The notes under the pieces are model-generated. The model was not told the origin of the DNA. It saw only the letters and a program-made list of their open reading frames with translations, and made no database searches. Below are positions 12,798-62,417 of a DNA stretch of 64,000 nucleotides, piece after piece. The position numbers and the translations under genes are program-made. Source of the stretch: Pseudomonadota bacterium (GTDB lineage Bacteria; Pseudomonadota; Alphaproteobacteria; MED-G09); assembly GCA_036344135.1 (NCBI GenBank), contig JAYYUG010000097.1, positions 8,034-72,033 on the forward strand, given 5' to 3'. Position 1 is the stretch's first letter; each line of letters opens with the position of its first letter.

Positions 12798-14144
12798 ATG
12801 AGTGAAAAAAGACTAGAGGAGCGTTCAGCAAGGGTTTCTGGGTCTGCCAATAGGGTATATTCGGAAGATGTTTTAATCACCGGAGATCGTTATACTTCAA
12901 TAGATTTCATGGAAAAAGAGATGGATAAACTGTGGTCAAGAGTTTGGAACATAGGAGGTTGGAGTAATGAAATTCCAAAATCGGGAGACTTTGTTACTCA
13001 CCATATAGGACGTGAATCTATACTAATGGTTCGTCAAACGGATGGTTCTGTTAAAGCGTTTCATAATGTCTGTCCTCATAGAGGAAATCGTCTTGTTCAT
13101 AACGATATTGGTTCAGTCCCGGAATTCACGTGCACTTACCATGGTTGGAAATTTGACCTCGGCGGTACGCTTATCTATGCTCAAGATGAAGAGGACTTTC
13201 CCAAAGGTAACCCATGTGGAAAACTTACTTTATCAGAAATCCCATGCGAAGTGTACGGTGGTTTTATTTGGTACAATATGGATGAAAATTGCTTCCCACT
13301 AAGCGGATTTTTGGGTGAAGTCAAAACCTACTTTGATATGCATGATTTAGAGGGCATGAAACGTATCTACCACAAAGTATGTGAAGTCCCTTTTAACTGG
13401 AAAGCATTAAGGGATAATTTTTGCGAATCCTACCATTTGCCAATGACTCATCCTCAAATCATAGATTACTTTGATGACGATTATAAAAATACTGATTTTG
13501 AACTTTTCGAAACCGGTCATAATTTAATGAAAATGAAAGGTTGCTTACCTTCTCTTCGCGATGCAGGAACATTTGAGATTAATGACAAACTTGAGGCAGA
13601 CCTTCTCAACTGGGGGCTGGATCCTGCTGATTTTGAAGGAAAAGCTCATAACGTTAGAGAAGCTCTTCAAAAACAAAAAAAGAAATTAGGTTCTAAAAGA
13701 GGTTTCAAACATTTTGAGAAAATGCCAGACGCTTGGCTTACAGATGCTTTCCATTTTAATGTTTTCCCGGGCACGTCCATCACCTTCACAGCTGAAGTTG
13801 TCTCTCTTCAGAGGACCGAACCACATCCGACCGATCCAAATAAATCGATTTATGATCATTGGCAAATGGCTTTGAAAGCAGATAATTCCGACAGCCCTGA
13901 AACTAACCCAACGATGTTGGTATCCAGTCCCGAAGAAATGGTTGAATGGGAAGAAGTTGAAAAGACAGTGGTAATATTTGGCGAAGAAACACTTAGTGAG
14001 GTCGCTGATCAAGATTTGGAAAGATCGAGCGGTCAACAACTGGGTTTTCACTCCCGAGGATTCAAGGGTGCTTATTTGTCTGGTCAAGAAAATCGTGTGC
14101 AACAATTTCATAACTTCATTGACCGTTATATAAATAAAATATAA
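12798..14144 (+). CDS. Rieske [2Fe-2S] non-heme iron oxygenase, alpha subunit (alpha-only type)
   Basis: CPHRGNRLVH...CTYHGWKF Rieske motif; catalytic-iron motif ESYHLPMTH; GGAGGG RBS. Confidence 0.9.
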   Translation: MSEKRLEERSARVSGSANRVYSEDVLITGDRYTSIDFMEKEMDKLWSRVWNIGGWSNEIPKSGDFVTHHIGRESILMVRQTDGSVKAFHNVCPHRGNRLVHNDIGSVPEFTCTYHGWKFDLGGTLIYAQDEEDFPKGNPCGKLTLSEIPCEVYGGFIWYNMDENCFPLSGFLGEVKTYFDMHDLEGMKRIYHKVCEVPFNWKALRDNFCESYHLPMTHPQIIDYFDDDYKNTDFELFETGHNLMKMKGCLPSLRDAGTFEINDKLEADLLNWGLDPADFEGKAHNVREALQKQKKKLGSKRGFKHFEKMPDAWLTDAFHFNVFPGTSITFTAEVVSLQRTEPHPTDPNKSIYDHWQMALKADNSDSPETNPTMLVSSPEEMVEWEEVEKTVVIFGEETLSEVADQDLERSSGQQLGFHSRGFKGAYLSGQENRVQQFHNFIDRYINKI

Positions 14145-16341: not shown

Positions 16342-17697
16342 ATGGGAAAAATGTTTAAAGATCTTGACCCGGACACGATGGTTCGATCGCCAGGTATTAC
16401 TTATCAGGAACTACTTGATACTGATTCACACGATGTTCCTGATGTATTAAGAATCCAATCACCAAAAGATCTTGGGCATTCAGAATTCTCGGTAGAACGT
16501 TACATTTCTAAAGACTGGCATGACAAAGAAGTTGAAAGAATGTGGAAAAAAATCTGGCAATTTGTATGTAGGGAAGAAGATATTGCTGAACCAGGCGACC
16601 ATTATCGTTATGATATTGCTGGAATTTCATTTCTCATTCTTCGTACAGAGACGAATGAGATTAAAGCCTATCCCAATTCATGTCTTCACCGTGGTCGGAT
16701 GCTCAAAGAGTTTGATGGTCACGCTTCCGAATTACGATGCCCTTTCCATGGATTCTGTTGGCACCTTGATGGCTCATTAAAGCATATACCTGCAGATTGG
16801 GATTTCCCTCAGATAGATAAAGAAAATTTTTCTTTACCTGAACTACCAATCGCTATCTGGGGAGGATTTGTGTTTATTAATCCTGACCAGCAATGCGAAC
16901 CATTTGATGATTTCATTAAGGATATGAAGACTCAGTTTGAACGTTGGGAACCAGAAAAGCTATATAAACAAGCGCATGTTGCAAAAATCGTGCCTTGTAA
17001 CTGGAAAATCGCACAAGAGGCTTTCTGCGAGGCCTATCATGTCAGCGGAACCCATCCACAAATTTTACCAAGTTTGGGGTGTGTTAATAGTCAGATCGAT
17101 GTTTGGGATAATTGCGCCCGAGTTATTACACCATCAATGACACCTAGTCCTCTTTTAGATTACGAACTTTCTGAAAAAGATATGATGCGTACCATGATGG
17201 ATCTACCACCGGAAGCCCAGGTTCCAGAATTACCAAAAGACATGAATCCTCGAGAGTTTATGGCGAATAGTAGCAGAGAGGATTTAAGGCCTAACGCAGG
17301 AAGTAAAGTTGATGAATATTGTGATGCTGAAATATTAGATAGCCTCGATTATACCTTGTTTCCAAATTTTCATCCGTGGGGTGCATTTAATAAAATAGTG
17401 TATAGATTTAGGCCCAATGGTAACGATCACCGATCAGCGATTATGGAATGCATTATGCTTTCGCCATTTCAAGGAGAAAGACCGCCTCCAGCTCCCATTC
17501 ATTGGTTGAAAGAAGATGAAAAATGGTCCAGTGCCTTGGGTTTTTTAGGTAAAGTTTTCGATCAAGATACTTTCAATATGCCTAAGGTACAACTTGGACT
17601 AGAATCTACCTACAAGTCAGGAATCACACTATCTGGTTACCAGGAAGGGAAGGTTCGTTGGTTACATCACAAATTGACTGAATGGGTGGGAGAATAA
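16342..17697 (+). CDS. Rieske non-heme iron oxygenase, alpha subunit (paralog 2)
   Basis: CLHRGRML...CPFHGFCWH; catalytic-iron motif EAYHVSGTH; clear paralog of 39763 and 60993 genes. Confidence 0.9.
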   Translation: MGKMFKDLDPDTMVRSPGITYQELLDTDSHDVPDVLRIQSPKDLGHSEFSVERYISKDWHDKEVERMWKKIWQFVCREEDIAEPGDHYRYDIAGISFLILRTETNEIKAYPNSCLHRGRMLKEFDGHASELRCPFHGFCWHLDGSLKHIPADWDFPQIDKENFSLPELPIAIWGGFVFINPDQQCEPFDDFIKDMKTQFERWEPEKLYKQAHVAKIVPCNWKIAQEAFCEAYHVSGTHPQILPSLGCVNSQIDVWDNCARVITPSMTPSPLLDYELSEKDMMRTMMDLPPEAQVPELPKDMNPREFMANSSREDLRPNAGSKVDEYCDAEILDSLDYTLFPNFHPWGAFNKIVYRFRPNGNDHRSAIMECIMLSPFQGERPPPAPIHWLKEDEKWSSALGFLGKVFDQDTFNMPKVQLGLESTYKSGITLSGYQEGKVRWLHHKLTEWVGE

Positions 17698-18971: not shown

Positions 18972-20120
18972 TTAAGCATAACCAACTTGTTTGTTAATCT
19001 TAGTTGCAATTTCACGCTCTGCATCAGTTGCAAAAGTATTATCCCAATGATCAAGCTTTTTCTTAATTAAAGCATGCCATAAAGGTGGCACAAGGGCTAA
19101 AGTAAATCCAGTAAAGTAACCCCACCCAGGATTGGGTCCTCCAACATCATCCAATTCCCAGAAATGTGTTTCTCCACGAACATGGTGATCGCATTGACGA
19201 CCAATTTCTATGAAAAACCAACTCGTAAAAGCCGTATCATTATCCCAAGAATGACGGTGTTCAATGGGTTTGTCCTTTTCTCGTACTAACCCAAAATGCT
19301 CCATATAGTTAAGAGCTTCCAGCTCAAAATTAGATATAGTCCAGACAAAGAACATGCAAGCAACTCCGACTATACCGCCTGCCCACACAAACAGGATTAT
19401 AGTTGGAAGACTTATTAAATAACCTGTAATCCATTTGTTATCTAATGAGAAAAACGATTTCCCTTGTTTCTCAAGTTTTTCTTGTTCCAACTCAAAAGAA
19501 AATTTTGACTGTCCCATATGTGATAACCAAAAATGTTTGTAAAGACTTCTACCCCTAGGAGAAGTGGCAGGATCATTTTCATGGGCAAGTTCTAAATGAT
19601 GGTTATAGACATGTGCGTAACAAAAATGTGCAGCACCGCTCAACCCCATCATCAATCTTGAAATAGGCCAACCTATATCTTTAGTATGAGATAATTCATG
19701 ACCATAAATTATTCCAAGTCCTGCAAATGCACCTGCTGACAAAGAAGCTCCGTACAATTCAAGACCTGTAATGCCTGTTTGAACAGGTAACCAACCCAAC
19801 AACGTAACAGTCCCAAAATCAGCTCCACTCGTATACTGATAAACTCTCCAAGCTAATACTACTTGTAAGATAATGAATATTGGCAGCATCAAATACATTA
19901 CTAGATTTTGTAATTCTTTTATTCCATAAGACTTTCCATTTTTATCAAATCCAGCACCTTTAGTATGGAAGTTGATCACCAGAGTATCTATAGTAATGCC
20001 AACTAAAAATAAAACAGCTCCTGTCCAAACAAAAGGTCCGCCAACAATGAGACCTAATATCGTGACAGACGTCAAAACTGGTACAATAAAGTATCTAATA
20101 TTAATAAAAAATTTTTTCAT
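18972..20120 (-). CDS. alkB: AlkB-family integral-membrane alkane 1-monooxygenase (fatty-acid-desaturase-like diiron hydroxylase)
   Basis: His boxes HELSH, HVYNHH, RQCDHH and the AlkB-specific NYMEHFGL (NYIEHYGL) motif; about 6 TM helices. Confidence 0.8.
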   Translation of the reverse strand: MKKFFINIRYFIVPVLTSVTILGLIVGGPFVWTGAVLFLVGITIDTLVINFHTKGAGFDKNGKSYGIKELQNLVMYLMLPIFIILQVVLAWRVYQYTSGADFGTVTLLGWLPVQTGITGLELYGASLSAGAFAGLGIIYGHELSHTKDIGWPISRLMMGLSGAAHFCYAHVYNHHLELAHENDPATSPRGRSLYKHFWLSHMGQSKFSFELEQEKLEKQGKSFFSLDNKWITGYLISLPTIILFVWAGGIVGVACMFFVWTISNFELEALNYMEHFGLVREKDKPIEHRHSWDNDTAFTSWFFIEIGRQCDHHVRGETHFWELDDVGGPNPGWGYFTGFTLALVPPLWHALIKKKLDHWDNTFATDAEREIATKINKQVGYA

Positions 20121-20412
20121 TTTATCCTCTCTTTAGTGCTTTCAGAAAACCCTTGGGCGCACAATCTGAAAATCAAATACCCTGCTCTTTGGCGAGCAAA
20201 CCATGACCACACTAAACTTTCGTTTAGCTTTTTACATTTTGAGATTTATAAACGGACCGTTTTTTTGCTTCCTGAGCCACATTGTATCACCACCTTCGCA
20301 CGGTATGCAGGTTGGCAGGGGTAATTCCCCCTCTCAAAATGTACTGACATTTAATGACAGAAGTCTATAAAATGCAACTAAAAATTGTATATAATATTAA
20401 AAAAGGGCAAAT

Positions 20413-33094: not shown

Positions 33095-34015
33095 TTATCC
33101 ACTCGTGGCTTTTTTGAGGACTGCTAAGTATGAACCTTCAACACACATTTGTTCTAAATATCCATTCTTTACTAGTATGTCATGCACCTTAGGTAAGTTG
33201 TACCAAGGACAACTAGTAAATAGATGGTGCTCTAAATGGTAATTTACATTATGGGGAACCATAAAGAATTTTATTAATCTCGAAGCTTTTGTCGTCCTGG
33301 TATTATCAAGATCAGATAGACCAGGCGTTACAGCATGTTCCGCAATATTTCTTATACGTATTATCAGGCTGTAATATGTGAAAGAGGGTAACCACCAAAG
33401 TAAGAAAAACAAAGACCAGTGAAATAATGTGCTTATAATAGCCAAAATAATAAGATTAGTTATTGTGAAACCTGATATTTTTTTCCATATCTTTTCTCGT
33501 TTCGTTCCATTTTCATCACCTTTTGAGGAAAAAATTGAAATTAATGATCCTCTATAACGCCTTAAACCAGTGATTCCCAACAAGTCTCTAACAACTTTAC
33601 GAAAAAAACTGGTTTTCTTAATGGGAAATGGATCACTCAAAACCTTGTCTGGATCTTTTGATGTTTCTGTAAAACGATGATGCTTTAGGTGATAAGGTCG
33701 ATATTGCCTATTATCTTGAAATAATGGGAATGAACAAAACCATTGTGTTATGAAATCATTTATTTTGGGATTTTTAAATAAGAGATTGTGTGCACCCTCA
33801 TGAGCTAAAACTGCTAAAGCAAACTGCCTACATCCAATAATAATAATGGCCAAAATAAAAGTCAAAAAAGAAGGGAAATAAGAAAACAATGAAATAGCCG
33901 CAAAAATCTGCACCCAATTGGATAGAATTGAAAAAATGTTTATCCAATCTTTCTTTTCTTTTATTGTTCTCAGTTGTTCTGCAGTAACTAACTCGGAAGG
34001 ATTGACGCTATCCAT
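33095..34015 (-). CDS. Fatty-acid desaturase family membrane protein
   Basis: His boxes HEGAHNLLF, HLKHHRF, HNVNYHLEHHLF; multi-TM. Confidence 0.75.
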   Translation of the reverse strand: MDSVNPSELVTAEQLRTIKEKKDWINIFSILSNWVQIFAAISLFSYFPSFLTFILAIIIIGCRQFALAVLAHEGAHNLLFKNPKINDFITQWFCSFPLFQDNRQYRPYHLKHHRFTETSKDPDKVLSDPFPIKKTSFFRKVVRDLLGITGLRRYRGSLISIFSSKGDENGTKREKIWKKISGFTITNLIILAIISTLFHWSLFFLLWWLPSFTYYSLIIRIRNIAEHAVTPGLSDLDNTRTTKASRLIKFFMVPHNVNYHLEHHLFTSCPWYNLPKVHDILVKNGYLEQMCVEGSYLAVLKKATSG

Positions 34016-34027
34016 TCTAACTCCTGT

Positions 34028-34468
34028 TTAAATCCATCTTCTTACTTCCTTTATATACGAAAGATATTCTTCTCCAAAAGTCTCTTTCAATAATTCTTCT
34101 TCTTTCATCACAAATTTATTACGAATCAAAAGAAAAAATCCGCTAATTACTGCTATGTTATAGAAATTATTTAAGATTACACCTAACCCTACTAAAAAGA
34201 TTGTCATTCCGGTGTACATTGGGTTTCTAGAAAATCTAAAAATCCCTTTTTTTACTAAGAAAGATGATTCAGTAAGTGGAATTATACTTGTTTTAGCCTT
34301 TATAAATTGATTTGCTGCAATTACATTACATGTTAGCCCACTAACTATTAATACCCACCCCGTTGACATAAGAAAGATATTCTTCGGATTACTGGAAGAA
34401 AATACGTACCATATAGCTAGCATTACAATGACGCTAATCAATAAAAAATGCGGTGGATATAACTTCAA
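34028..34468 (-). CDS. ICMT/PEMT-family membrane methyltransferase
   Basis: RNPMYTG ... EEELLKETFGEEYLSYIKEVRRWI C-terminal SAM-binding signature of isoprenylcysteine carboxyl / phospholipid methyltransferases. Confidence 0.65.
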   Translation of the reverse strand: MKLYPPHFLLISVIVMLAIWYVFSSSNPKNIFLMSTGWVLIVSGLTCNVIAANQFIKAKTSIIPLTESSFLVKKGIFRFSRNPMYTGMTIFLVGLGVILNNFYNIAVISGFFLLIRNKFVMKEEELLKETFGEEYLSYIKEVRRWI

Positions 34469-34595
34469 TTTTTTTCCTATAATATAAATCTATTAAATGA
34501 TAATTGATTATTTTAAAATAAAAAATGCAAGAATGTGTAAAAAATCTTAAAATGTTTTTAGAATCGTTCCGATATGCTAAGGGATAAGAAAATAA

Positions 34596-35342
34596 ATGAA
34601 ATTTTTTTTTAAATTCTCTGTTGTAATATTATCTTTTGTTGTTTCTTTCTCATCTTACTCTTGGTCAAAATCACCAGAATCTATCATTGATGAGGTTGAA
34701 AAGCTTTATCAAGGTAATTCAAGTAGAGTAAAGATAACAATGAAGATTGTTACAGAAGATTATGAAAGATCCCTTTCTTTACAAGGCATAACTGTCGGTG
34801 ATGATCTTGCGAATTTTCGAATTCTAACACCAAAGAAAGATCGGGGTGTAGCAACTTTGATGAGATTTAAAGAAATGTGGAATTTTCTTCCAAAAATTGA
34901 TCGCGTTATTAAAGTCCCACCTTCCATGATGATGAGTTCGTGGATGGGAAGTGATTTCACAAATGATGACCTTGTAAAACAAACTCATCTTTCAGAAGAG
35001 TATGATCTTACGTTATCTGAGAAAGAAGATAGTTACATAATAACTTTAATTCCTAGGGTTTCGACAGTTACTGTTTGGGGGAAAATTCAATATCATATAT
35101 TGAAAGAGCCTTTAATACCGACAAAGCAAATATTTTATGATGAAAAAGGAGTCGCTATTCGTCAGTTGGATTTTATTGATCCTAAAATTTTTGATGGGAA
35201 ACTATTACCCTCTAAACTTGTTATGGTTCCACTAAATAAAGAAGGTCATAAAACTATCATAATCTATGATTCAATTTCTTTTGATCCCGATGATATTTCT
35301 GAAGACATGTTTACCCTCAGATATCTTAAAAGGAGATTTTAG
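34596..35342 (+). CDS. Periplasmic LolA-like (outer-membrane lipoprotein-sorting-like fold) protein, secreted
   Basis: Signal peptide; ~250-aa beta-rich protein immediately upstream of an FtsX/ABC module; assignment tentative. Confidence 0.5.
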   Translation: MKFFFKFSVVILSFVVSFSSYSWSKSPESIIDEVEKLYQGNSSRVKITMKIVTEDYERSLSLQGITVGDDLANFRILTPKKDRGVATLMRFKEMWNFLPKIDRVIKVPPSMMMSSWMGSDFTNDDLVKQTHLSEEYDLTLSEKEDSYIITLIPRVSTVTVWGKIQYHILKEPLIPTKQIFYDEKGVAIRQLDFIDPKIFDGKLLPSKLVMVPLNKEGHKTIIIYDSISFDPDDISEDMFTLRYLKRRF

Positions 35343-36562
35343 TGCTTGTAATACGCATGGCTTTTAGGAATCTTTTTCGTCAATACAGAAGAACAATACT
35401 TACCGGATTATCAATTGGCGGAGGATATATTGTCTTTGTCTTATCTGTTTCACTTGTCGAAGGAAGTTACGGTAATGTCATTGATATATTTACAAAAGAT
35501 AGTGTAGGGCATATTCAGATACATCAGAAAAGTTATCGAGAAAAGCCTAAGACATATTTGACAATAAAAAACCGTCAAGAAGTAGAAGAATTATTTCTTA
35601 AAGAATCTAAAATTATAAGTTTTACACCTAGGGTTCTTTCAATGGCGTTAGCGTATGGAAAAGATAAGTCTACTCCTGTAAAGGTTCTTGGAATTGATCC
35701 AAATCTTGAATCAGATGTAACTAGAATTAAAGAGAAAATTTTTAGTGGAGATTATTTTGACAACATTCCCAATGCTGATGGTTACTACAAAGCCATGATT
35801 GGCTCTTCTATTGCTAAGTCATTAAAAATTAATATTGGCGATGAACTAATTTTAATTGGCCAAGGAGCAGAAGGGTCAATTGCTAATGATATTTTTATCG
35901 TAAGTTCAATTGTTGGAAATGAAGATTCTTTTGATAGAATGACCGTTTACCTACCTTTAATTGCAGCACAAAGTTTTTTATCTTTATCCGATGAGGTTCA
36001 TCAATATGCTCTCTTAGTAAATACTCCGAAGAGAAATGTAGAGATTGCGGATGAATTACAAGAAACTCTTTCCAATTTAGAGGTTGCGCCCTGGCAAAGA
36101 ATTGAAACTACTTTTTATCAAACGATGCAGGCAGATAAGAAAGGAAATAATTATGTTCTTGTATTAATTGTGTTCCTTGTTTTTGTGGGGGTGTTAAATA
36201 CTATTTTAATGTCAGTGCTTGAAAGAACAAAGGAATTTGGCGTAATTCGGGCAATAGGCTGTAGACCTTCAAAATTAATACTTCTCATAAATCTTGAAAC
36301 CATGTTTCTTACTTTCTTAAGTATTTCCCTTTCTCTCGTTATAGTTATTCCTATGATCTACTGGTTTGCTAACACTGGGTTTTTACTTTCAGAACCTATT
36401 GATATGGGTGGTGTAATGTTTCAGCATATGAGGGGAGAATTTTCATTATATGTATTTTTAAAACCTTTGATAATTATCTTTATAACTTCAATGTTAGTAA
36501 GCCTTCCTCCAGGTTTTCGTGCTGCTAGAATGACACCTAAGAATGCAATGGATATTAATTAA
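35342..36562 (+). CDS. ABC transporter permease, FtsX/MacB/LolC-like (4 TM with large periplasmic loop)
   Basis: N-terminal TM after MAFRNLFRQYRRT, large periplasmic domain, three C-terminal TMs; GTG start overlapping upstream stop with AGGAGA RBS. Confidence 0.8.
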   Translation: MLVIRMAFRNLFRQYRRTILTGLSIGGGYIVFVLSVSLVEGSYGNVIDIFTKDSVGHIQIHQKSYREKPKTYLTIKNRQEVEELFLKESKIISFTPRVLSMALAYGKDKSTPVKVLGIDPNLESDVTRIKEKIFSGDYFDNIPNADGYYKAMIGSSIAKSLKINIGDELILIGQGAEGSIANDIFIVSSIVGNEDSFDRMTVYLPLIAAQSFLSLSDEVHQYALLVNTPKRNVEIADELQETLSNLEVAPWQRIETTFYQTMQADKKGNNYVLVLIVFLVFVGVLNTILMSVLERTKEFGVIRAIGCRPSKLILLINLETMFLTFLSISLSLVIVIPMIYWFANTGFLLSEPIDMGGVMFQHMRGEFSLYVFLKPLIIIFITSMLVSLPPGFRAARMTPKNAMDIN

Positions 36563-37783
36563 ATGTTAATGATTAGACAGGCTTGGAGAAATATATTTAG
36601 GAATATCCGTAGAACGGTATTGACCTGTACTTTAATTGCAAGTTCATTAGTCATTATAATTTTAGTTGATACTTTAATCAATTCAATGACCGGGTTAATG
36701 GTTAAAGGAATTACTGAAACTATAGAAGGTGAAGCCCAAATTTATCATTCGGGCTTTAGAGATCAATATGATCCAGAATTATATATAAGCGATCCCAAAT
36801 CCATTATTTCAAAATTAGATTCTGATGATGAGATAAAGACATATGCATCAAGAGTAATAGTCCCATCAATGATCGGCTCTAGCTACAACTCAGATGGAGT
36901 TGTACTCTATGGAGTTGATGCAGAAAAAGAATCAAACACCAGCAGATTGCAATCAGCAATTATTGAAGGCGATTATTTAAGTGGCTCTGATAGGGAGTTA
37001 TTACTTGGACGACTTATTGCTGAAAAATTAGAAGTAGGTATTGGAGATAGAATTGTCATAACATCTTCAGAAATAAATACTAATCAAATGATTCAAGAGT
37101 TATTTAGAGTATCAGGAATTGTCCAATTTGGTCCAAAAGAGTTAGATGAAGGTTTTGCTTTTATAAATCTTTCTACCGCACAAAGAATGTTTAATATTGG
37201 AGAAGGGGTTCATCAAATAGCTATAAGATTTAATAATCCGGAATTAGCCAATTCGCCAGATTTAGACATTTATAAAACCTTACCGTCAGATACTTTAGAG
37301 GCAAAAGGTTGGTTAGCTTTACAGCCTGGATTGGGGGCTATGCTTGAAATGACTGGCTTATCAACGCTTATAATGGGCACAATTCTTTTTATACTTGCTT
37401 CTTTAGGTGTTGTTAATTCGATATTTATGTCAATTTATGAACGAACTTATGAACTTGCGGTAAGCAAGGCAATTGGCACGCGTCCATCAGGAATTGCATC
37501 TTTGGTTTTACTTGAAGGGTTATTTCTTGCTTTAATAAGTTGTTTTTTTGGTATCATAATAACTTTTATTTTAGGGATTTTTCTTCAAGAAAGTGGATTG
37601 TCTTTAGGGGTAATGGAATTTTCAGGAGTTGCCTTTCCAGATAACATACCTGTTAAACTAACATTAGACCAATATGTTAATTTCCCTTTTTATGTTGTTT
37701 TATTAACTTTAGTAGCTGCAACTTACCCAGCAATTTTTGCCGCCCGCATTGTACCAGCGCAAGCTGTTCAAAAGGCTTTATAG
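36563..37783 (+). CDS. ABC transporter permease, FtsX/LolE-like (paralog)
   Basis: Same architecture as upstream permease; start 1 nt after its stop. Confidence 0.8.
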   Translation: MLMIRQAWRNIFRNIRRTVLTCTLIASSLVIIILVDTLINSMTGLMVKGITETIEGEAQIYHSGFRDQYDPELYISDPKSIISKLDSDDEIKTYASRVIVPSMIGSSYNSDGVVLYGVDAEKESNTSRLQSAIIEGDYLSGSDRELLLGRLIAEKLEVGIGDRIVITSSEINTNQMIQELFRVSGIVQFGPKELDEGFAFINLSTAQRMFNIGEGVHQIAIRFNNPELANSPDLDIYKTLPSDTLEAKGWLALQPGLGAMLEMTGLSTLIMGTILFILASLGVVNSIFMSIYERTYELAVSKAIGTRPSGIASLVLLEGLFLALISCFFGIIITFILGIFLQESGLSLGVMEFSGVAFPDNIPVKLTLDQYVNFPFYVVLLTLVAATYPAIFAARIVPAQAVQKAL

Positions 37784-37795
37784 GAGAAAGTACGT

Positions 37796-38497
37796 ATGTC
37801 TAGGGTTATTGAAATTGAAAATCTTACGCGCAAATATGGTAAGGGCATAGGAGAAGTTGTGGCAATAAATGAAATCTCCCTGAATATTGAGTACGGCGAA
37901 TTTACAGCAATTATTGGTCCTTCAGGTTCTGGTAAATCAACTTTACTTAATTTAATAGGGGGTTTGGATAAGTCCGATTCTGGTTGTGTCCTTCTGGCTG
38001 GAAAGGATATAGCAAAAATGTCTGGCTCGCAGATGTCAGATTTCAGAAGAGATCGTATTGGGTTTATTTTTCAGGCTTATAACCTGATTCCCGTTCTCTC
38101 AGCAGCAGAAAATATTGAATACATAATGCTTTTACAAGGTATTTCTTCGGTTAAACGTAAGGAACGAGTCCAAGAAATGCTATCTCTCGTTGGTTTGGAA
38201 GGATTAGGACATAGAAGACCATCCGAATTATCTGGGGGTCAACAGCAAAGAGTCGCTGTTGCCAGAGCAATGGCCTCCGAACCCGAAATTATCCTCGCTG
38301 ACGAACCTACTGCGAATTTGGACTCTAAAAATGGAATGGCCTTACTGGATATGATGAGACAACTAAACGAGGATCAAGGCGTAACCTTTATTTTTTCCAC
38401 ACATGATGAGATGATTATGAAACGGGCTCGCAGATTAATCCACCTTCGTGATGGTTTGGTTGCACTTGATGAAAGAAATAGTAATGCCACGCCTTAG
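37796..38497 (+). CDS. ABC transporter ATP-binding protein (LolD/MacB-type)
   Basis: Walker A GPSGSGKST, signature LSGGQQQRVAVARA, Walker B ILADEPT. Confidence 0.9.
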   Translation: MSRVIEIENLTRKYGKGIGEVVAINEISLNIEYGEFTAIIGPSGSGKSTLLNLIGGLDKSDSGCVLLAGKDIAKMSGSQMSDFRRDRIGFIFQAYNLIPVLSAAENIEYIMLLQGISSVKRKERVQEMLSLVGLEGLGHRRPSELSGGQQQRVAVARAMASEPEIILADEPTANLDSKNGMALLDMMRQLNEDQGVTFIFSTHDEMIMKRARRLIHLRDGLVALDERNSNATP

Positions 38498-39677
38498 CTT
38501 GGTATTGATAATGCTAATTTTATCATCAGAGGCTTATTGTGCTGAACTTTCTGGTTATTTAAAAACTTATGCAGTTATACAAAAAGAAAAAGACCTTGAT
38601 GTTATTGAGGTTCCCAAAATGGATCTCTTGCAGACAACGTTACGCCTAAAAATTGAATCTAAGGGTGAAAGATCAGCATGGGAAATTCACTATGAACTCA
38701 ATACAATAAATAGTTCCAGACGATTATCCTCGTACGTCTTACCGGGGTCATCTGATGAAATACTACCTGTAGAGAGAACTTATCGATACAATGACTTAAA
38801 TCGTGAAATTTCGAAAGATGATCAGTATTCTCTTCAACAGAATCTGGATCGCTTAAACATTCAGTTTCAACTCGACTCTGGAGACCTCACTTTGGGTCGT
38901 CAAGCTATATCCTTAGGAACTTCACGATTTGTAAATCCAATGGATGTATTTTTACCTTTTGATCTACGAGCATTGAACACAGAGTATAGGCCCGGTATTG
39001 ATGCCATACGATTTCAAAAGCCATTGGGAAATCTTGGAGAATTGGATGTTGGATGGGTTTTTGGAAGAGACGGAGAAAAGAAAAATTCGGCTGCTTACGC
39101 TAAGCTTTCCAGGCGTTTTCGTGGTCAGGATTTTCAAATTACCTTTGTGAATACCGATTCACTCTTACTGGTGGGCGCTGGAATCCAAGGGGCAGTTGGT
39201 AATAGTGGGTACTGGCTAGAGATTGCTAATATCTCGGGTGATGATGACTATACGAGGATTTCCATTGGTCTTGATCACGCTTTTACAGACAATATTTATT
39301 TTATGACTGAGTATCATTACAATGGTATCGGAACAACTTCACCAGAAAAATACTTTGAACAATACGAACGGGATGCCTACCAAGAACATGGGGTTTTCCT
39401 TCTAGGTGAACAATATCTCGCCAGCAGTTTGAGTGTACAAATCTCACCAGTAACTATCGCAGGTCTACAAATGCTTTATAATCTTGACGATCGTTCGGCG
39501 TTTACAGCATTAAGTATTGAACGTCATCTGACCGATGACCTGTATCTAGATCTTGGATATTACAGGTTTTTTGGTGATAAAAAATTAGTATTCTCTGAAA
39601 AAAATGGGATTGTCCCAACGTCGGAATATGGTTTAAATCCTGATATGGCATATATAAGTCTTAGATATTATTTTTAA
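38484..39677 (+). CDS. Outer-membrane beta-barrel protein (hypothetical), secreted
   Basis: ATG at 38484 overlaps the ATPase stop; signal peptide MPRLSLVLIMLILSSEAYCAE; alternating amphipathic strands; C-terminal ...RYYF aromatic terminus typical of OMP. Confidence 0.5.
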   Translation: MPRLSLVLIMLILSSEAYCAELSGYLKTYAVIQKEKDLDVIEVPKMDLLQTTLRLKIESKGERSAWEIHYELNTINSSRRLSSYVLPGSSDEILPVERTYRYNDLNREISKDDQYSLQQNLDRLNIQFQLDSGDLTLGRQAISLGTSRFVNPMDVFLPFDLRALNTEYRPGIDAIRFQKPLGNLGELDVGWVFGRDGEKKNSAAYAKLSRRFRGQDFQITFVNTDSLLLVGAGIQGAVGNSGYWLEIANISGDDDYTRISIGLDHAFTDNIYFMTEYHYNGIGTTSPEKYFEQYERDAYQEHGVFLLGEQYLASSLSVQISPVTIAGLQMLYNLDDRSAFTALSIERHLTDDLYLDLGYYRFFGDKKLVFSEKNGIVPTSEYGLNPDMAYISLRYYF

Positions 39678-39762: not shown

Positions 39763-41175
39763 ATGAGCGAGAGAATTAAAGAAAAAGAAGAAAATTTAGA
39801 ACCGGGAGAGGCCCGATCTCCATTTACAAGTTACACTGAATATTTAGAAGAAGACTCAAAAAAATTACCAGATTTTATGATGGACGAAAACTATGAGTTT
39901 CTTGGTTCTGAAGATATTTCAATGGAAAGATATACTTCCAAAGAATTCTTCAAAAAAGAAGCGGAATGCATGTGGACTAGAGTCTGGCAATTTGCTTGTA
40001 GAGTGGAAGATATTCCTGAGGTAGGTGATAGCCTAGTTTATGATATTCTTGATTACTCATTCCTAATAGTAAGATCTGAAGAAAATAAGATTCAAGCTTT
40101 TTACAACTCTTGCCTTCATAGAGGAAGAAAATTAAAAACAGAAAGAGGTATTAGTAAAGATATCGAATGCCCATTCCACGGATATTGTTGGAATCTTGAT
40201 GGTACATTGAAACACACACCTGCTGCATGGGATTTTCCTCATGTCAAAGCAGATAAGTGGAGCCTTCCAGAAGTAAGAGTTGAACTTTGGCAGGGTTTTG
40301 TTTTTATTAATATGGATGATAATGCGGTTTCTCTCGAAGAATATTTAGCCCCATTACCCGAACATCATGAAAGATGGAATTTAGCAGATTGTAAAAAAGT
40401 TATTCATGTTTCTAAAGTAGTCCCAGGAAATTGGAAAACGGTTCAAGAGGCTTTTATGGAAGCCTTTCATGCTACAAAAATTCATCCTGAGATACTTCCT
40501 TTCCAAGCTGATGAAAACGCAAGATATGATATTTATGGTGATCATATGAATAGAAACTTAGCTCTTGTTGGTAAGCCCGGACCCCATTGTTGGCCAGTTA
40601 CTGAACAAGAAATACTAGATACAATCTCTTATGGTTCTGGGAGGGTTTTTGATGAAAATAAGACTATAGTTCCAGAAGGAGAAGAAGCAAGAAAAGTAGC
40701 AGCAGAAGCTGCTAGAAAAGCTTATAATGAGGCTGATGGACATGATTACTCAGATAAATCCGACGCGGAAATGCTCGATGCTTTAGTCTATAATGTTTTT
40801 CCAAATTTTTCACCTTGGGGTGGATTTCCTAGAAATCTTATTTATAGGTTTAGACCAAATGGTACTAGAGAAGATTCAGCTATTATGGAAGCTTTCTTTC
40901 TTCAAAGGAATCATAAAGACCCTGAAAAACAAGAACCTTACGAACCTATTCCTATTCACTACCTTAGTGAAGATGAAAACTGGGATGACGCTGAAGAGTT
41001 AGTAGGTATCGGTTTCATATTTGATCAGGATATGTCAAATATACCGGAAGTTGAAAAAGGAATGAGAGCCTCAAAAAAAGGTGCAGTGACTTATGCAAAC
41101 TATCAAGAAAGCCGTATCCGTCATTACCATCAGACAATAGATAAATATATTTCTAAAGGACCTTTTAAACCTTAA
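39763..41175 (+). CDS. Rieske non-heme iron oxygenase, alpha subunit (paralog 3)
   Basis: CLHRGRKL...CPFHGYCWN; catalytic-iron motif EAFHATKIH. Confidence 0.9.
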   Translation: MSERIKEKEENLEPGEARSPFTSYTEYLEEDSKKLPDFMMDENYEFLGSEDISMERYTSKEFFKKEAECMWTRVWQFACRVEDIPEVGDSLVYDILDYSFLIVRSEENKIQAFYNSCLHRGRKLKTERGISKDIECPFHGYCWNLDGTLKHTPAAWDFPHVKADKWSLPEVRVELWQGFVFINMDDNAVSLEEYLAPLPEHHERWNLADCKKVIHVSKVVPGNWKTVQEAFMEAFHATKIHPEILPFQADENARYDIYGDHMNRNLALVGKPGPHCWPVTEQEILDTISYGSGRVFDENKTIVPEGEEARKVAAEAARKAYNEADGHDYSDKSDAEMLDALVYNVFPNFSPWGGFPRNLIYRFRPNGTREDSAIMEAFFLQRNHKDPEKQEPYEPIPIHYLSEDENWDDAEELVGIGFIFDQDMSNIPEVEKGMRASKKGAVTYANYQESRIRHYHQTIDKYISKGPFKP

Positions 41176-60815: not shown

Positions 60816-60992
60816 AAGCAGACTCCTTACTCATAATTTTAATCATAATTTTCCTTATAGCTAATTATATTTTATTCCAACTCAATAGTACATATGAGAA
60901 AAAGCGTATGATTAGCAAATATTTTACAAAATAAAGTGTTGTTGTTAATATCGATGGTGCTGTTGTCAAGATGGCTGGGGGAATCTAAAACC

Positions 60993-62417
60993 ATGAAAGT
61001 GATCAAAGCAAAAGATATGAATTATAAAGCCAACGGTGATGGTCCCACCTTGCAAAAAGTTTTTGATGGTGACAGCATCCAACCACCAGCAGCCTTTCGA
61101 GAAGACCCCAGTATGGAACTGGGTACAGCTGACATCTCTATCGATCGTTACACTTCCCAAGAATGGCATCAAGCCGAAGTAAAGAATGTCTGGCAAAAGG
61201 TTTGGCAGGTTGCCTGCCGATTAGAGGAAATCCCCGAGATAGGCGACTACGTTGTCTACGACATTGTAGACGACAGCTTAATCATTACCCGTACGAGTGA
61301 AAACGAAGTACATGCCTATTTTAATGCCTGTCTGCATCGTGGGAATGCTCTATGTATGGAAAATGGCCATGCCGAGAAATTCCGCTGTCCTTTCCATGGT
61401 TTTACTTATTCTTTGCAAGGCAAACTTGAATCTATCCCCAGTGACTGGGATTTTCAGCATGTCGACAAGAATGAATATTCCTTGCCCGAGGCCAAGGTCG
61501 GTTTTTGGGGTGGTTTTGTCTTTGTTAATCTCGACCCGAATTGTGGGTCTCTGGAAGATTATCTGGAGATCATCCCTAAGCATCTTGATGGATTTGATTT
61601 TGATAAAAAGTATAAGGCTATCCATTTATCTAAGGTGATGCCGTGCAATTGGAAGGTCTGCCAAGAGGCCTTTATTGAAGGCTATCATGTCGCCGAAACC
61701 CATTATGAACATACAGCTGATGGTGGTATCGACCCAGATGGTATTGGCTCCTTCATGGATGATGTAATGATGCAATATGATGTCTGGCCTGAAAGCAAGC
61801 ACGTGACCCGCATGATCCTGGCAAGCGGTGTCGCCAGCCAACATGTCGCTAAGCACGACCGGTCCGAACAACACATTATCGATATGATGTTACACTATCT
61901 GCCTGAAGACCAACGCCCGCAGTTGAAAGAAGGTGAAAAGGCCCGCCCTGCCCTTGCTGAACATAGCCGAAAAACACTTGGTGCCTTGTATGGCGTTGAT
62001 CTATCGCAACACAGTGACACAGATGTTCTAGACCAGGTGGAATACACACTTTTTCCAAACTTTACCTTTTGGCCAACCCTGTTTGCACCGTTGCTGTATC
62101 GTTTCAGGCCCCACGGCCATAATGTCGATGAAAGCATCATGGAAGTGTACATGCTTTATCCTATCCCCGAAGATGGACGAGACTATAAAACAAGTGAAGA
62201 AGTACGGCTGGCACCCGGTGAAACGTGGTCTTCACGCTCCGAACTTGGTAATTACGGCCCTATTCTCGACGAAGACACTCCCAATATGATCCGCATGACC
62301 AAAGGGCTGAAGACATCGCGTAAGCCGGGAATCACTCTCGCCAACTACCAGGAAAACCGCTTGCGCCAGTTTCATGGAGTTTTGGATGATTATGTTGGCG
62401 GGAAATACAAGAAATGA
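60993..62417 (+). CDS. Rieske non-heme iron oxygenase, alpha subunit (paralog 4, in GC-rich island)
   Basis: CLHRGNAL...CPFHGFTYS; catalytic-iron motif EGYHVAETH; ATG 60993 with GGGGAA RBS preferred over upstream GTG 60936; GC ~50% vs ~37% background. Confidence 0.85.
   Translation: MKVIKAKDMNYKANGDGPTLQKVFDGDSIQPPAAFREDPSMELGTADISIDRYTSQEWHQAEVKNVWQKVWQVACRLEEIPEIGDYVVYDIVDDSLIITRTSENEVHAYFNACLHRGNALCMENGHAEKFRCPFHGFTYSLQGKLESIPSDWDFQHVDKNEYSLPEAKVGFWGGFVFVNLDPNCGSLEDYLEIIPKHLDGFDFDKKYKAIHLSKVMPCNWKVCQEAFIEGYHVAETHYEHTADGGIDPDGIGSFMDDVMMQYDVWPESKHVTRMILASGVASQHVAKHDRSEQHIIDMMLHYLPEDQRPQLKEGEKARPALAEHSRKTLGALYGVDLSQHSDTDVLDQVEYTLFPNFTFWPTLFAPLLYRFRPHGHNVDESIMEVYMLYPIPEDGRDYKTSEEVRLAPGETWSSRSELGNYGPILDEDTPNMIRMTKGLKTSRKPGITLANYQENRLRQFHGVLDDYVGGKYKK

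Follow-up and report, generated by a model that had tools for sequence, protein, structure and literature searches.

The movement of lipids and other hydrophobic molecules between the two membranes of Gram-negative bacteria is only partly understood. Type VII ATP-binding cassette (ABC) transporters, which have no transmembrane substrate path, turn ATP hydrolysis into work in the periplasm, one example being LolCDE, which extracts lipoproteins for LolA (PMC5985334). In Borrelia burgdorferi, a computational proposal has drawn attention to a cluster (BBJ23-BBJ29) that contains a type VII ABC transporter resembling MacB, a LolA-like protein, and an outer-membrane barrel (PMC13078400). Dedicated outer-membrane barrels also accompany inner-membrane exporters for hydrophobic substrates in the DUF1302/DUF1329/BNR/RND systems, for which cofitness on Tween 20 has been reported in Pseudomonas and Shewanella clusters (10.1101/072470, 10.1101/2020.07.04.188060), and the phenotype of AmeABCD of Castellaniella defragrans is tied to monoterpenes (PMC6394551). 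Here, we describe a five-gene module located at positions 34596-39677 of a 64-kb stretch of DNA (64,000 nucleotides of contig JAYYUG010000097.1, hereafter the window) from a Pseudomonadota bacterium. It encodes a LolA-like carrier, two MacB-type permeases, an ABC ATPase, and an outer-membrane barrel, and we consider with moderate confidence that it constitutes an accessory, self-contained Lol-like route carrying hydrophobic or lipid-anchored cargo outward. Our literature search found no paper describing this module, the nearest being those on the Borrelia BBJ23-BBJ29 cluster, the DUF1302/DUF1329 systems, and LolA3.

Like the LolCDE-LolA-LolB pathway of the Escherichia coli type, the module combines heterodimeric MacB-fold permeases with four transmembrane (TM) segments, a separate ATPase, and a half-barrel carrier of the LolA superfamily, without any adaptor, and presumably follows the same extract-shuttle-deliver logic. 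It differs in that its outer-membrane partner is an integral 18-stranded barrel instead of the lipoprotein LolB, its five genes lie in one operon, its LolCE and LolD scores fall below the cut-offs, and its distribution is patchy and partly plasmid-borne. The Borrelia cluster encodes an Omp85 (BamA/TamA-like) barrel, a homodimeric permease, and two TPR proteins, whereas the module has an OprD/AlgE-like 18-stranded barrel, heterodimeric permeases, and no TPR proteins. The DUF1302/DUF1329 systems depend on an RND engine and a BNR protein and have a larger barrel (DUF1302, ~600 aa) and carrier (DUF1329, ~450 aa); no DUF1302, DUF1329, BNR, or RND component was matched in the module by Pfam, which places it outside the Ame type. 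With MacAB-TolC it shares the MacB_PCD and FtsX folds and a related ATPase, but it has neither a HlyD-type adaptor, nor an OEP/TolC duct, nor a fusion of the nucleotide-binding domain to the permease. Finally, the modeled barrel resembles OprD/Occ, AlgE, and Wzi in its 18-stranded fold and its long L3 and L7 loops, but it does not belong to these families by sequence (8-13% identity, no Pfam match), and the genes for these channels are accompanied neither by one for a LolA-like carrier nor by those for a type VII ABC transporter. Seen as a putative Lol-like pathway, the module is new in that its carrier comes from another family and its outer-membrane partner is an integral barrel.

Protein composition and operon structure

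Both permeases consist of one TM segment, a periplasmic MacB-type domain of ~225 aa, and three further TM segments, as seen in a hydropathy scan, and they are only 26% identical to each other. We compared them with the housekeeping Lol proteins using the NCBIfam equivalog cut-offs (TIGR02212, TIGR02213, NF008076, and TIGR02211). Against the lolCE model TIGR02212, permease 1 reached 116.5 bits and permease 2 136.3 bits for a cut-off of 362.45, with lower values yet for LolE (at most 95 bits, cut-off 439-540) and LolC (at most 44 bits, cut-off 473). Among solved sequences, those nearest to permease 1 are LolF and LolE, and those nearest to permease 2 are LolF, LolE, and LolC, ahead of MacB. The alignments with LolF (E 5e-20), LolE (E 2e-18), and LolC extend over nearly the full length of both proteins, whereas those with MacB cover only the FtsX segment. 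Within the type VII ABC family, the two permeases are distant paralogues that fall on the Lol side, and they are the predicted halves of a LolC/LolE-like heterodimer. No second Lol-type permease is present within the window. The ATPase (ABC_tran, E 4e-37) has intact Walker A, signature, Walker B, and H-loop motifs, and its sequence places it in a LolD/MacB/DarD-like clade, with best NCBIfam matches to DarD (224.6 bits, cut-off 375) and LolD (223.5 bits, cut-off 307.75), both below cut-off, and an about equal score for MacB. With four-TM permeases that contain a large MacB_PCD domain between TM1 and TM2, and with intact ATPase motifs, the module has the defining features of a type VII (MacB-fold) ABC transporter.

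The carrier belongs to the LolA_like (TP_0789-like) family PF17131, whose gathering score it passes by a wide margin (E 2.6e-41, 141.7 bits for a 30-bit cut-off), and it gives no match to the LolA family model in the Pfam scan. Its N-terminus is a hydrophobic signal peptide with no lipobox and no cysteine in the first 30 residues, from which we predict that it is soluble in the periplasm instead of being a lipoprotein. The predicted structure is a LolA-superfamily half-barrel, for which the second-best structural match is the crystal structure of the Bacteroidota LolA3; RseB and MucB match it far more weakly than the PF17131 structures do. Residues 106-127 form a loop (VPPSMMMxSWMGSDFTNDDLV) that is invariant in the marine clade. 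Outside this clade, the same loop reads SMLSQSWM in Vibrio and SAKKGSMM in Haliovirga, and invariance is confined to the S, M, G, S, F, and D columns.

The barrel carries a signal peptide and a C-terminal RYYF. Its AlphaFold2 model, computed from 38 homologues (pLDDT 84.9, pTM 0.82), shows 18 main strands by DSSP and two long loops of a possibly in-folding type: L3 (~141-171), which contains the most conserved block of the family (GRQAISxGxxRxxNPxDVFLPF, or in its broader form GRQxIxxGxxRxxNPxDxFxPF), and the helical L7 (~281-309). According to this model, the protein is an 18-stranded monomeric outer-membrane channel. No Pfam family covers it, some members showing only weak generic matches to OMP_b-brl and Porin_4; the OprD family is not matched in any of the 38 members even at E<=1, and there is no match to PF02321 (OEP/TolC). 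Homologues are nevertheless plentiful: a word-index search retrieved more than 300 relatives, almost all of them unnamed and from marine metagenomes, and a full profile search retrieved 3340 clusters at 50% identity with E<=1e-3, 516 of them with E<=1e-30. A subset of the barrels, from Azotimanducaceae/HTCC2089 and other Pseudomonadales metagenome-assembled genomes (MAGs), bears an N-terminal periplasmic extension of ~150 aa (loci L015, L017-L019, L034, L068, L072, and L080; also P0040, P0064, P0089, P0111, and P0241), and a SPOR (PF05036) peptidoglycan-binding domain is annotated in several of them.

The five genes (Table 1) are co-directional, their successive junctions being a 1-nt overlap, an abutment, a 12-nt gap, and a 14-nt overlap. 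Because these junctions overlap, abut, or nearly touch, the genes are likely translationally coupled as one operon. The longest-ORF (open reading frame) rule puts the barrel start at a GTG codon (38448), and the signal peptide begins at Met13 (MPRLSLVLIMLILSSEAYC/AE); with the start at Met13, the overlap with the ATPase stop is exactly 14 nt. A preliminary description of this stretch, made from the DNA letters and their translations, had reported the five abutting or overlapping co-directional genes, the 14-nt overlap, a secreted LolA-like protein, and a barrel ending in RYYF. The ORF coordinates, the PF17131 match, and the signal peptide agree with it on every one of these points. Of the structural checks that it suggested, the carrier model adopts the LolA-like half-barrel on which its interpretation depended, and the strand count of the barrel comes to 18 in a confident predicted model.

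Table 1. Position of the module, its flanking genes, and other features of the window, with mean amino acid identity to the window in the distant set of loci
Feature	Position	Strand	Product or remark	Mean identity
Carrier	34596-35342	+	248 aa; PF17131 LolA_like	57%
Permease 1	35342-36562	+	406 aa; MacB_PCD + FtsX	52%
Permease 2	36563-37783	+	406 aa; MacB_PCD + FtsX	49%
ABC ATPase	37796-38497	+	233 aa; ABC_tran	69%
Outer-membrane barrel	38484-39677	+	397 aa counted from Met13; ends ISLRYYF	44%
Upstream intergenic region	34469-34595	+	Common to operon and divergent ICMT-like gene	
FA_desaturase-family protein	33095-34015	-	Pfam	
PEMT/ICMT-family protein	34028-34468	-	Pfam	
Rieske/Ring_hydroxyl_A protein	39763-41175	+	Pfam; Rieske oxygenase alpha subunit	
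Rieske oxygenase alpha subunit	12798-14144	+		
Rieske oxygenase alpha subunit	16342-17697	+		
Rieske oxygenase alpha subunit	60936-62417	+		
SAM-I/IV riboswitch	20251-20347	-	RF01725; 51.1 bits, gathering score 41.1	
ORF downstream of riboswitch	18972-20120	-	Sole Pfam match FA_desaturase, E 2.5e-24	

Conservation and distribution of the module

A scan of one genome per species yielded 80 related loci, and we determined gene content by tblastn over 81 unique loci. The order carrier-permease 1-permease 2-ATPase-barrel is kept in 72 of them, at 40-73% amino acid identity. The other nine are cut by contig ends and so provide no counter-example. Such strict co-inheritance of the five genes goes far beyond chance. 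The module is also present in the closed genomes CP121333.1, CP170502.1, and OZ253946.1. The hosts are marine Pseudomonadales MAGs (OM182, Azotimanducaceae/HTCC2089, Pseudohongiella, and K189A), and the closest relatives of the window are two MAGs labeled Rhodobiaceae (L004 and L005; 92-97% protein identity, same flanks), which does not support the "marine gammaproteobacteria" label used in the preliminary description. All module hosts in this set beyond the Rhodobiaceae MAGs are Gammaproteobacteria, with ~45% barrel identity, and the window has a GC content of 36%; the window may be alphaproteobacterial or, as another possibility, the module may have been laterally acquired.

Several variations on this arrangement were observed. 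In locus L007, the carrier and the two permeases are 90-95% identical to those of the window, the ATPase 81%, and the barrel 69%, an uneven divergence that suggests faster evolution or replacement of the surface-exposed barrel. Permease 1 is tandemly duplicated in L028 (5403-7838), which has three permease genes in all, and ~1.7 kb are inserted between the two permease genes in L060 (6075-7761). An extra ATPase gene downstream of the module in four loci (L021, L061, L067, and L076) was considered as a genuine lolD and rejected; in L076 it is part of an OEP-HlyD-ATPase-MacB tripartite pump. In 13 unique loci, genes for an extracytoplasmic function (ECF) sigma factor and for a membrane protein with DUF6768, which may be an anti-sigma factor, lie directly upstream of the operon and overlap or abut the carrier gene in L001 (5108-6107) and L002 (5184-6102). 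This pair is the sole recurrent functional neighbor of the module, and its position suggests that the operon is inducible by envelope stress rather than constitutive in these lineages. The window and most loci have no such pair nearby.

A wider search, by tblastn of a plasmid collection followed by locus analysis, showed that the module reaches beyond the marine clade. The same five-gene order occurs on chromosome 2 of Vibrio campbellii (NZ_CP050465.1, ~1359.3-1364.5 kb), between genes for a GGDEF protein and a chemoreceptor (barrel hhalign probability 97.4%), and on a plasmid of Persicobacter (Bacteroidota). Plasmids p1 of Burkholderia thailandensis AW34-19p (L084) and pRp12D0 of Ralstonia pickettii (L085) carry a rearranged variant in which the carrier is followed by the ATPase, a fused double permease, the barrel (hhalign 99.6%, E 7e-25), and a UbiB/ABC1-family kinase, within a metal-resistance island with P-type ATPase, YHS, cupredoxin, and ICMT-family proteins. 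The two islands are probably one mobile element. Presence on plasmids, and in Vibrio, which has its own LolA and LolB (solved separately as structure entries 8chx and 8cm1), argues that the module family is accessory.

In Fusobacteriia (Haliovirga and three metagenomic contigs), a PF17131 gene adjoins a homologue of the barrel (hhalign 99.2%, E 9e-20 against the window barrel, with the same L3 motif). In three of these four cases, the carrier-barrel pair is preceded by a TetR regulator and, in place of an ABC transporter, by an MMPL-type RND transporter. These clusters therefore share the carrier family and a homologous barrel with the module and differ from it in their engine, an MMPL-type RND protein under TetR. 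In Porphyromonas gingivalis, a TetR/MMPL/"lipoprotein-sorting protein"/hypothetical cluster counts among the genes showing the strongest induction under hemin limitation (PMC10470040), and by its annotation probably has a comparable layout. Since the pair occurs beside either an ABC or an MMPL/RND transporter, it is the conserved core of these systems, with an interchangeable inner-membrane engine. A bolder proposal, which we put forward only tentatively, is that the PF17131 carrier and the 18-stranded barrel (L3 motif GRxxIxxGxxxxxNPxDxF) might be an unrecognized, phylum-spanning pair for delivery from the periplasm to the outer membrane, driven by either ABC or MMPL/RND transporters.

A proposed outward route and its alternatives

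In the mechanism that we propose, the pair of dissimilar permeases, together with the ATPase in two copies, would form a heterodimeric type VII (MacB/Lol-type) ABC machine that, having no transmembrane substrate path, would extract its cargo from the inner membrane and pass it to the soluble PF17131 half-barrel carrier. The loaded carrier would then diffuse across the periplasm and dock on the 18-stranded barrel, which would insert the cargo into the outer membrane or pass it through. We infer these physical hand-offs, their outward direction, and the class of cargo (lipid, lipidated protein, or small hydrophobic compound) from the following arguments. No HlyD-type adaptor and no OEP/TolC gene was found within the module in any locus (the window and L001-L003 were scanned, and the five genes are contiguous in 72 loci). 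With neither an adaptor nor a tunnel-forming duct, the soluble carrier is the only possible connection between the ABC machine and the barrel. The same absences, together with the Lol scores below cut-off, indicate that the module is neither the housekeeping Lol system nor a MacAB-TolC pump. MMPL pumps are exporters acting at the periplasmic face. The type VII mechanism, the carrier as the only link, and the service of the same pair to MMPL pumps jointly favor an outward extract-shuttle-deliver route. A hydrophobic cargo is favored because the analogous systems made up of a LolA-superfamily protein, an outer-membrane protein, and an inner-membrane exporter (AmeABCD, DUF1302/DUF1329) have hydrophobic-substrate phenotypes. 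The preliminary description had proposed an envelope-spanning trafficking system for a hydrophobic molecule, distinct from housekeeping Lol. The core of this proposal holds on the computational tests run, and the distinction from housekeeping Lol agrees with the permease and ATPase scores, far below the LolCE and LolD cut-offs, and with the plasmid and V. campbellii chromosome 2 copies. Its argument from neighboring genes does not stand (see below), and the hydrophobic class of the cargo is putative.

Several observations weigh against such an outward route. Clustering of the genes flanking ~80 loci revealed no conserved biosynthetic neighbor pointing to a cargo. We found no functional study of the module in the literature on TP0789, PF17131, and "outer membrane lipoprotein-sorting protein" combined with FtsX. 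No function is known for the nearest carrier with a solved structure, LolA3 of P. gingivalis, and the LolA3 of Bacteroidota does not bind LolB (PMC13103446, PMC11885536). Carrier loop 106-127 is the least confident part of the model (pLDDT below 50), so that the geometry of the cavity and of docking is not derivable from it; low confidence would be expected for a mobile lid or partner-binding element. Lastly, in structural alignments, the folds closest to the barrel are mostly those of uptake channels (OccAB4/BenP, ChiP, OpdQ, and OccD3; 8-13% identity).

The substrate specificity of these uptake channels is one reason to consider an inward or retrograde route, in which the barrel would admit a hydrophobic or amphipathic nutrient, or a mislocalized outer-membrane lipid, the carrier would ferry it in, and the ABC transporter would receive it or insert it at the inner membrane. 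The window is, moreover, dense in enzymes of oxidative catabolism (four Rieske oxygenases, a P450, an FMO-like protein, and an acyl-CoA dehydrogenase) and encodes a TonB-dependent receptor, and the succession of outer-membrane channel, soluble carrier, and inner-membrane ABC transporter equals the Mla layout (OmpC-MlaA, MlaC, and MlaFEDB). However, these catabolic neighbors are not conserved, no second inner-membrane importer is conserved beside the module in the flank clustering, and the alternative engine in Fusobacteriia, an MMPL-type RND transporter, belongs to an exporter family. No importer is known among type VII ABC transporters, which offer their substrate no route through the membrane (PMC5985334). 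We thus regard inward transport as unlikely.

Somewhat less probable still is a MacB-type detoxification or efflux pump that would use the barrel as its exit, in place of TolC, to expel amphipathic toxins, peptides, or antibiotics from the periplasm. The MacB_PCD/FtsX permeases, the about equal scores of the ATPase for MacB, DarD, and LolD, the ECF sigma/anti-sigma-like pair upstream of 13 loci, which suggests stress induction, and the location of the Burkholderia and Ralstonia copies in resistance islands would all suit such a pump. Nevertheless, none of the 72 complete loci contains a membrane-fusion adaptor or an OEP-family duct, in contrast with the canonical OEP-HlyD-ATPase-MacB operon found a few kb away in L076; the barrel, modeled as an 18-stranded monomer, has no periplasmic tunnel with which to reach a pump; and it is Lol proteins, not MacB, that the permeases match over their full length.

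The ECF sigma factor and DUF6768 genes that overlap the carrier start in L001 and L002, and that recur in 13 loci, might also point to an envelope-stress sensor that moves no cargo, the LolA-fold protein acting, like RseB/MucB, as the lipid-sensing partner of an anti-sigma factor and the ABC transporter acting, like FtsEX, on a periplasmic partner. FtsEX-type signaling is indeed a known use of the type VII ABC fold (PMC5985334). This explanation appears quite improbable to us: most loci, including the window, have no sigma/anti-sigma pair nearby, the barrel is always present and co-inherited, RseB and MucB are much weaker matches to the carrier than the PF17131 structures, and the carrier-barrel pair is also found together with MMPL pumps, as would suit transport but not signaling.

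That the module is simply the LolCDE-LolA lipoprotein sorting system of its host is very improbable, even if lolCE and LolE are the best named NCBIfam matches of the permeases, the ATPase has LolD as one of its two best matches, and the carrier family bears the PGAP-type name "outer membrane lipoprotein-sorting protein". Besides the scores given above (116 and 136 against 362 for the permeases, 223 against 308 for the ATPase), the carrier is a PF17131 protein, the order of two permeases and then the ATPase, with a carrier and a barrel, is unlike lolC-lolD-lolE, and the patchy distribution extends to Burkholderia and Ralstonia plasmids and to V. campbellii chromosome 2, Vibrio being a genus with its own LolA and LolB. 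We give equally little credit to periplasmic handling of soft metals (Cu/Ag) by the Met/Trp-rich carrier loop: SMMMxSWM is invariant in the marine clade, genes for P-type ATPase, YHS, cupredoxin, and ICMT-family (CzcN-like) proteins surround the copies in Burkholderia and Ralstonia, and an ICMT-like gene also abuts the window operon, but the Met cluster is clade-specific, ICMT-family neighbors are absent from ~75 other loci, and the two plasmid islands, probably one mobile element, are not independent evidence.

Flanking genes and wider genomic context

The preliminary description had listed a desaturase, an ICMT-like methyltransferase, and a Rieske oxygenase as neighbors of the module and had read this lipid-modifying and Rieske context as a clue to its role. 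Pfam confirms the three families, but the argument fails, since these flanks are common only to the window and the near-identical MAGs L004 and L005. They are absent from L007, despite its 90% identical carrier and 69% identical barrel, and from the distant loci (~40-47% barrel identity). As the flanks differ among loci, none of the desaturase, ICMT-like, and Rieske genes is a conserved partner: the neighborhood conservation that the same description proposed to examine holds for the five genes, whereas the context around them is lineage-specific. When 815 flank ORFs were clustered all against all, no family turned up in more than 22 of ~80 loci, and the most frequent families are generic (SDR, LysR-like).

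The intergenic region upstream of the carrier is a probable promoter region. One sigma-70-like match occurs at 34454-34483 (TGGATA-18-TATAAT, 10/12 matching). It is weak, promoter-like matches upstream of the operon being not more numerous than in shuffles, and the scan for promoters and terminators was uninformative, the region being AT-rich.

The best NCBIfam match of the adjacent "desaturase" (33095-34015) is GntB, the guanitoxin L-arginine gamma-hydroxylase, at 142 bits for a 380 cut-off, which raises the possibility that its product is not a lipid desaturase but a di-iron hydroxylase of the membrane. Elsewhere in the window, a SAM-I/IV riboswitch is found ~130 nt upstream of another FA_desaturase ORF, an unusual target gene for a riboswitch of this kind. 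The four Rieske oxygenase alpha subunits are paralogous, with 27-40% mutual identity, and we noticed no beta subunit or ferredoxin gene adjoining them; for the copy next to the module, the only one scanned in NCBIfam, the best match is GbcA-like and far below the cut-off. Oxidative enzymes are abundant in the window in general, with P450, FMO-like, OYE-fusion, Cu amine oxidase, and acyl-CoA dehydrogenase genes, and a TonB-dependent receptor gene is present alongside them.

Implications for envelope transport

In public annotation, proteins of the carrier family are called "outer membrane lipoprotein-sorting protein" and receive Gene Ontology terms for lipoprotein transport. This annotation over-interprets homology, and the housekeeping role that it implies is probably wrong. 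If the carrier-barrel pair does deliver cargo from the periplasm to the outer membrane in the way tentatively proposed above, it would represent a general export route for envelope lipids or other hydrophobes, separate from Lol, Lpt, and Mla as well as from tripartite pumps, in which the barrel takes the place of LolB and acts as an acceptor or exit integral to the membrane. Uncultured marine Pseudomonadales carry the module in abundance, and yet it is also found in tractable hosts such as Vibrio campbellii and Burkholderia thailandensis, and the identity of its cargo would give a function to thousands of proteins now annotated as "outer membrane lipoprotein-sorting protein" or "hypothetical protein".

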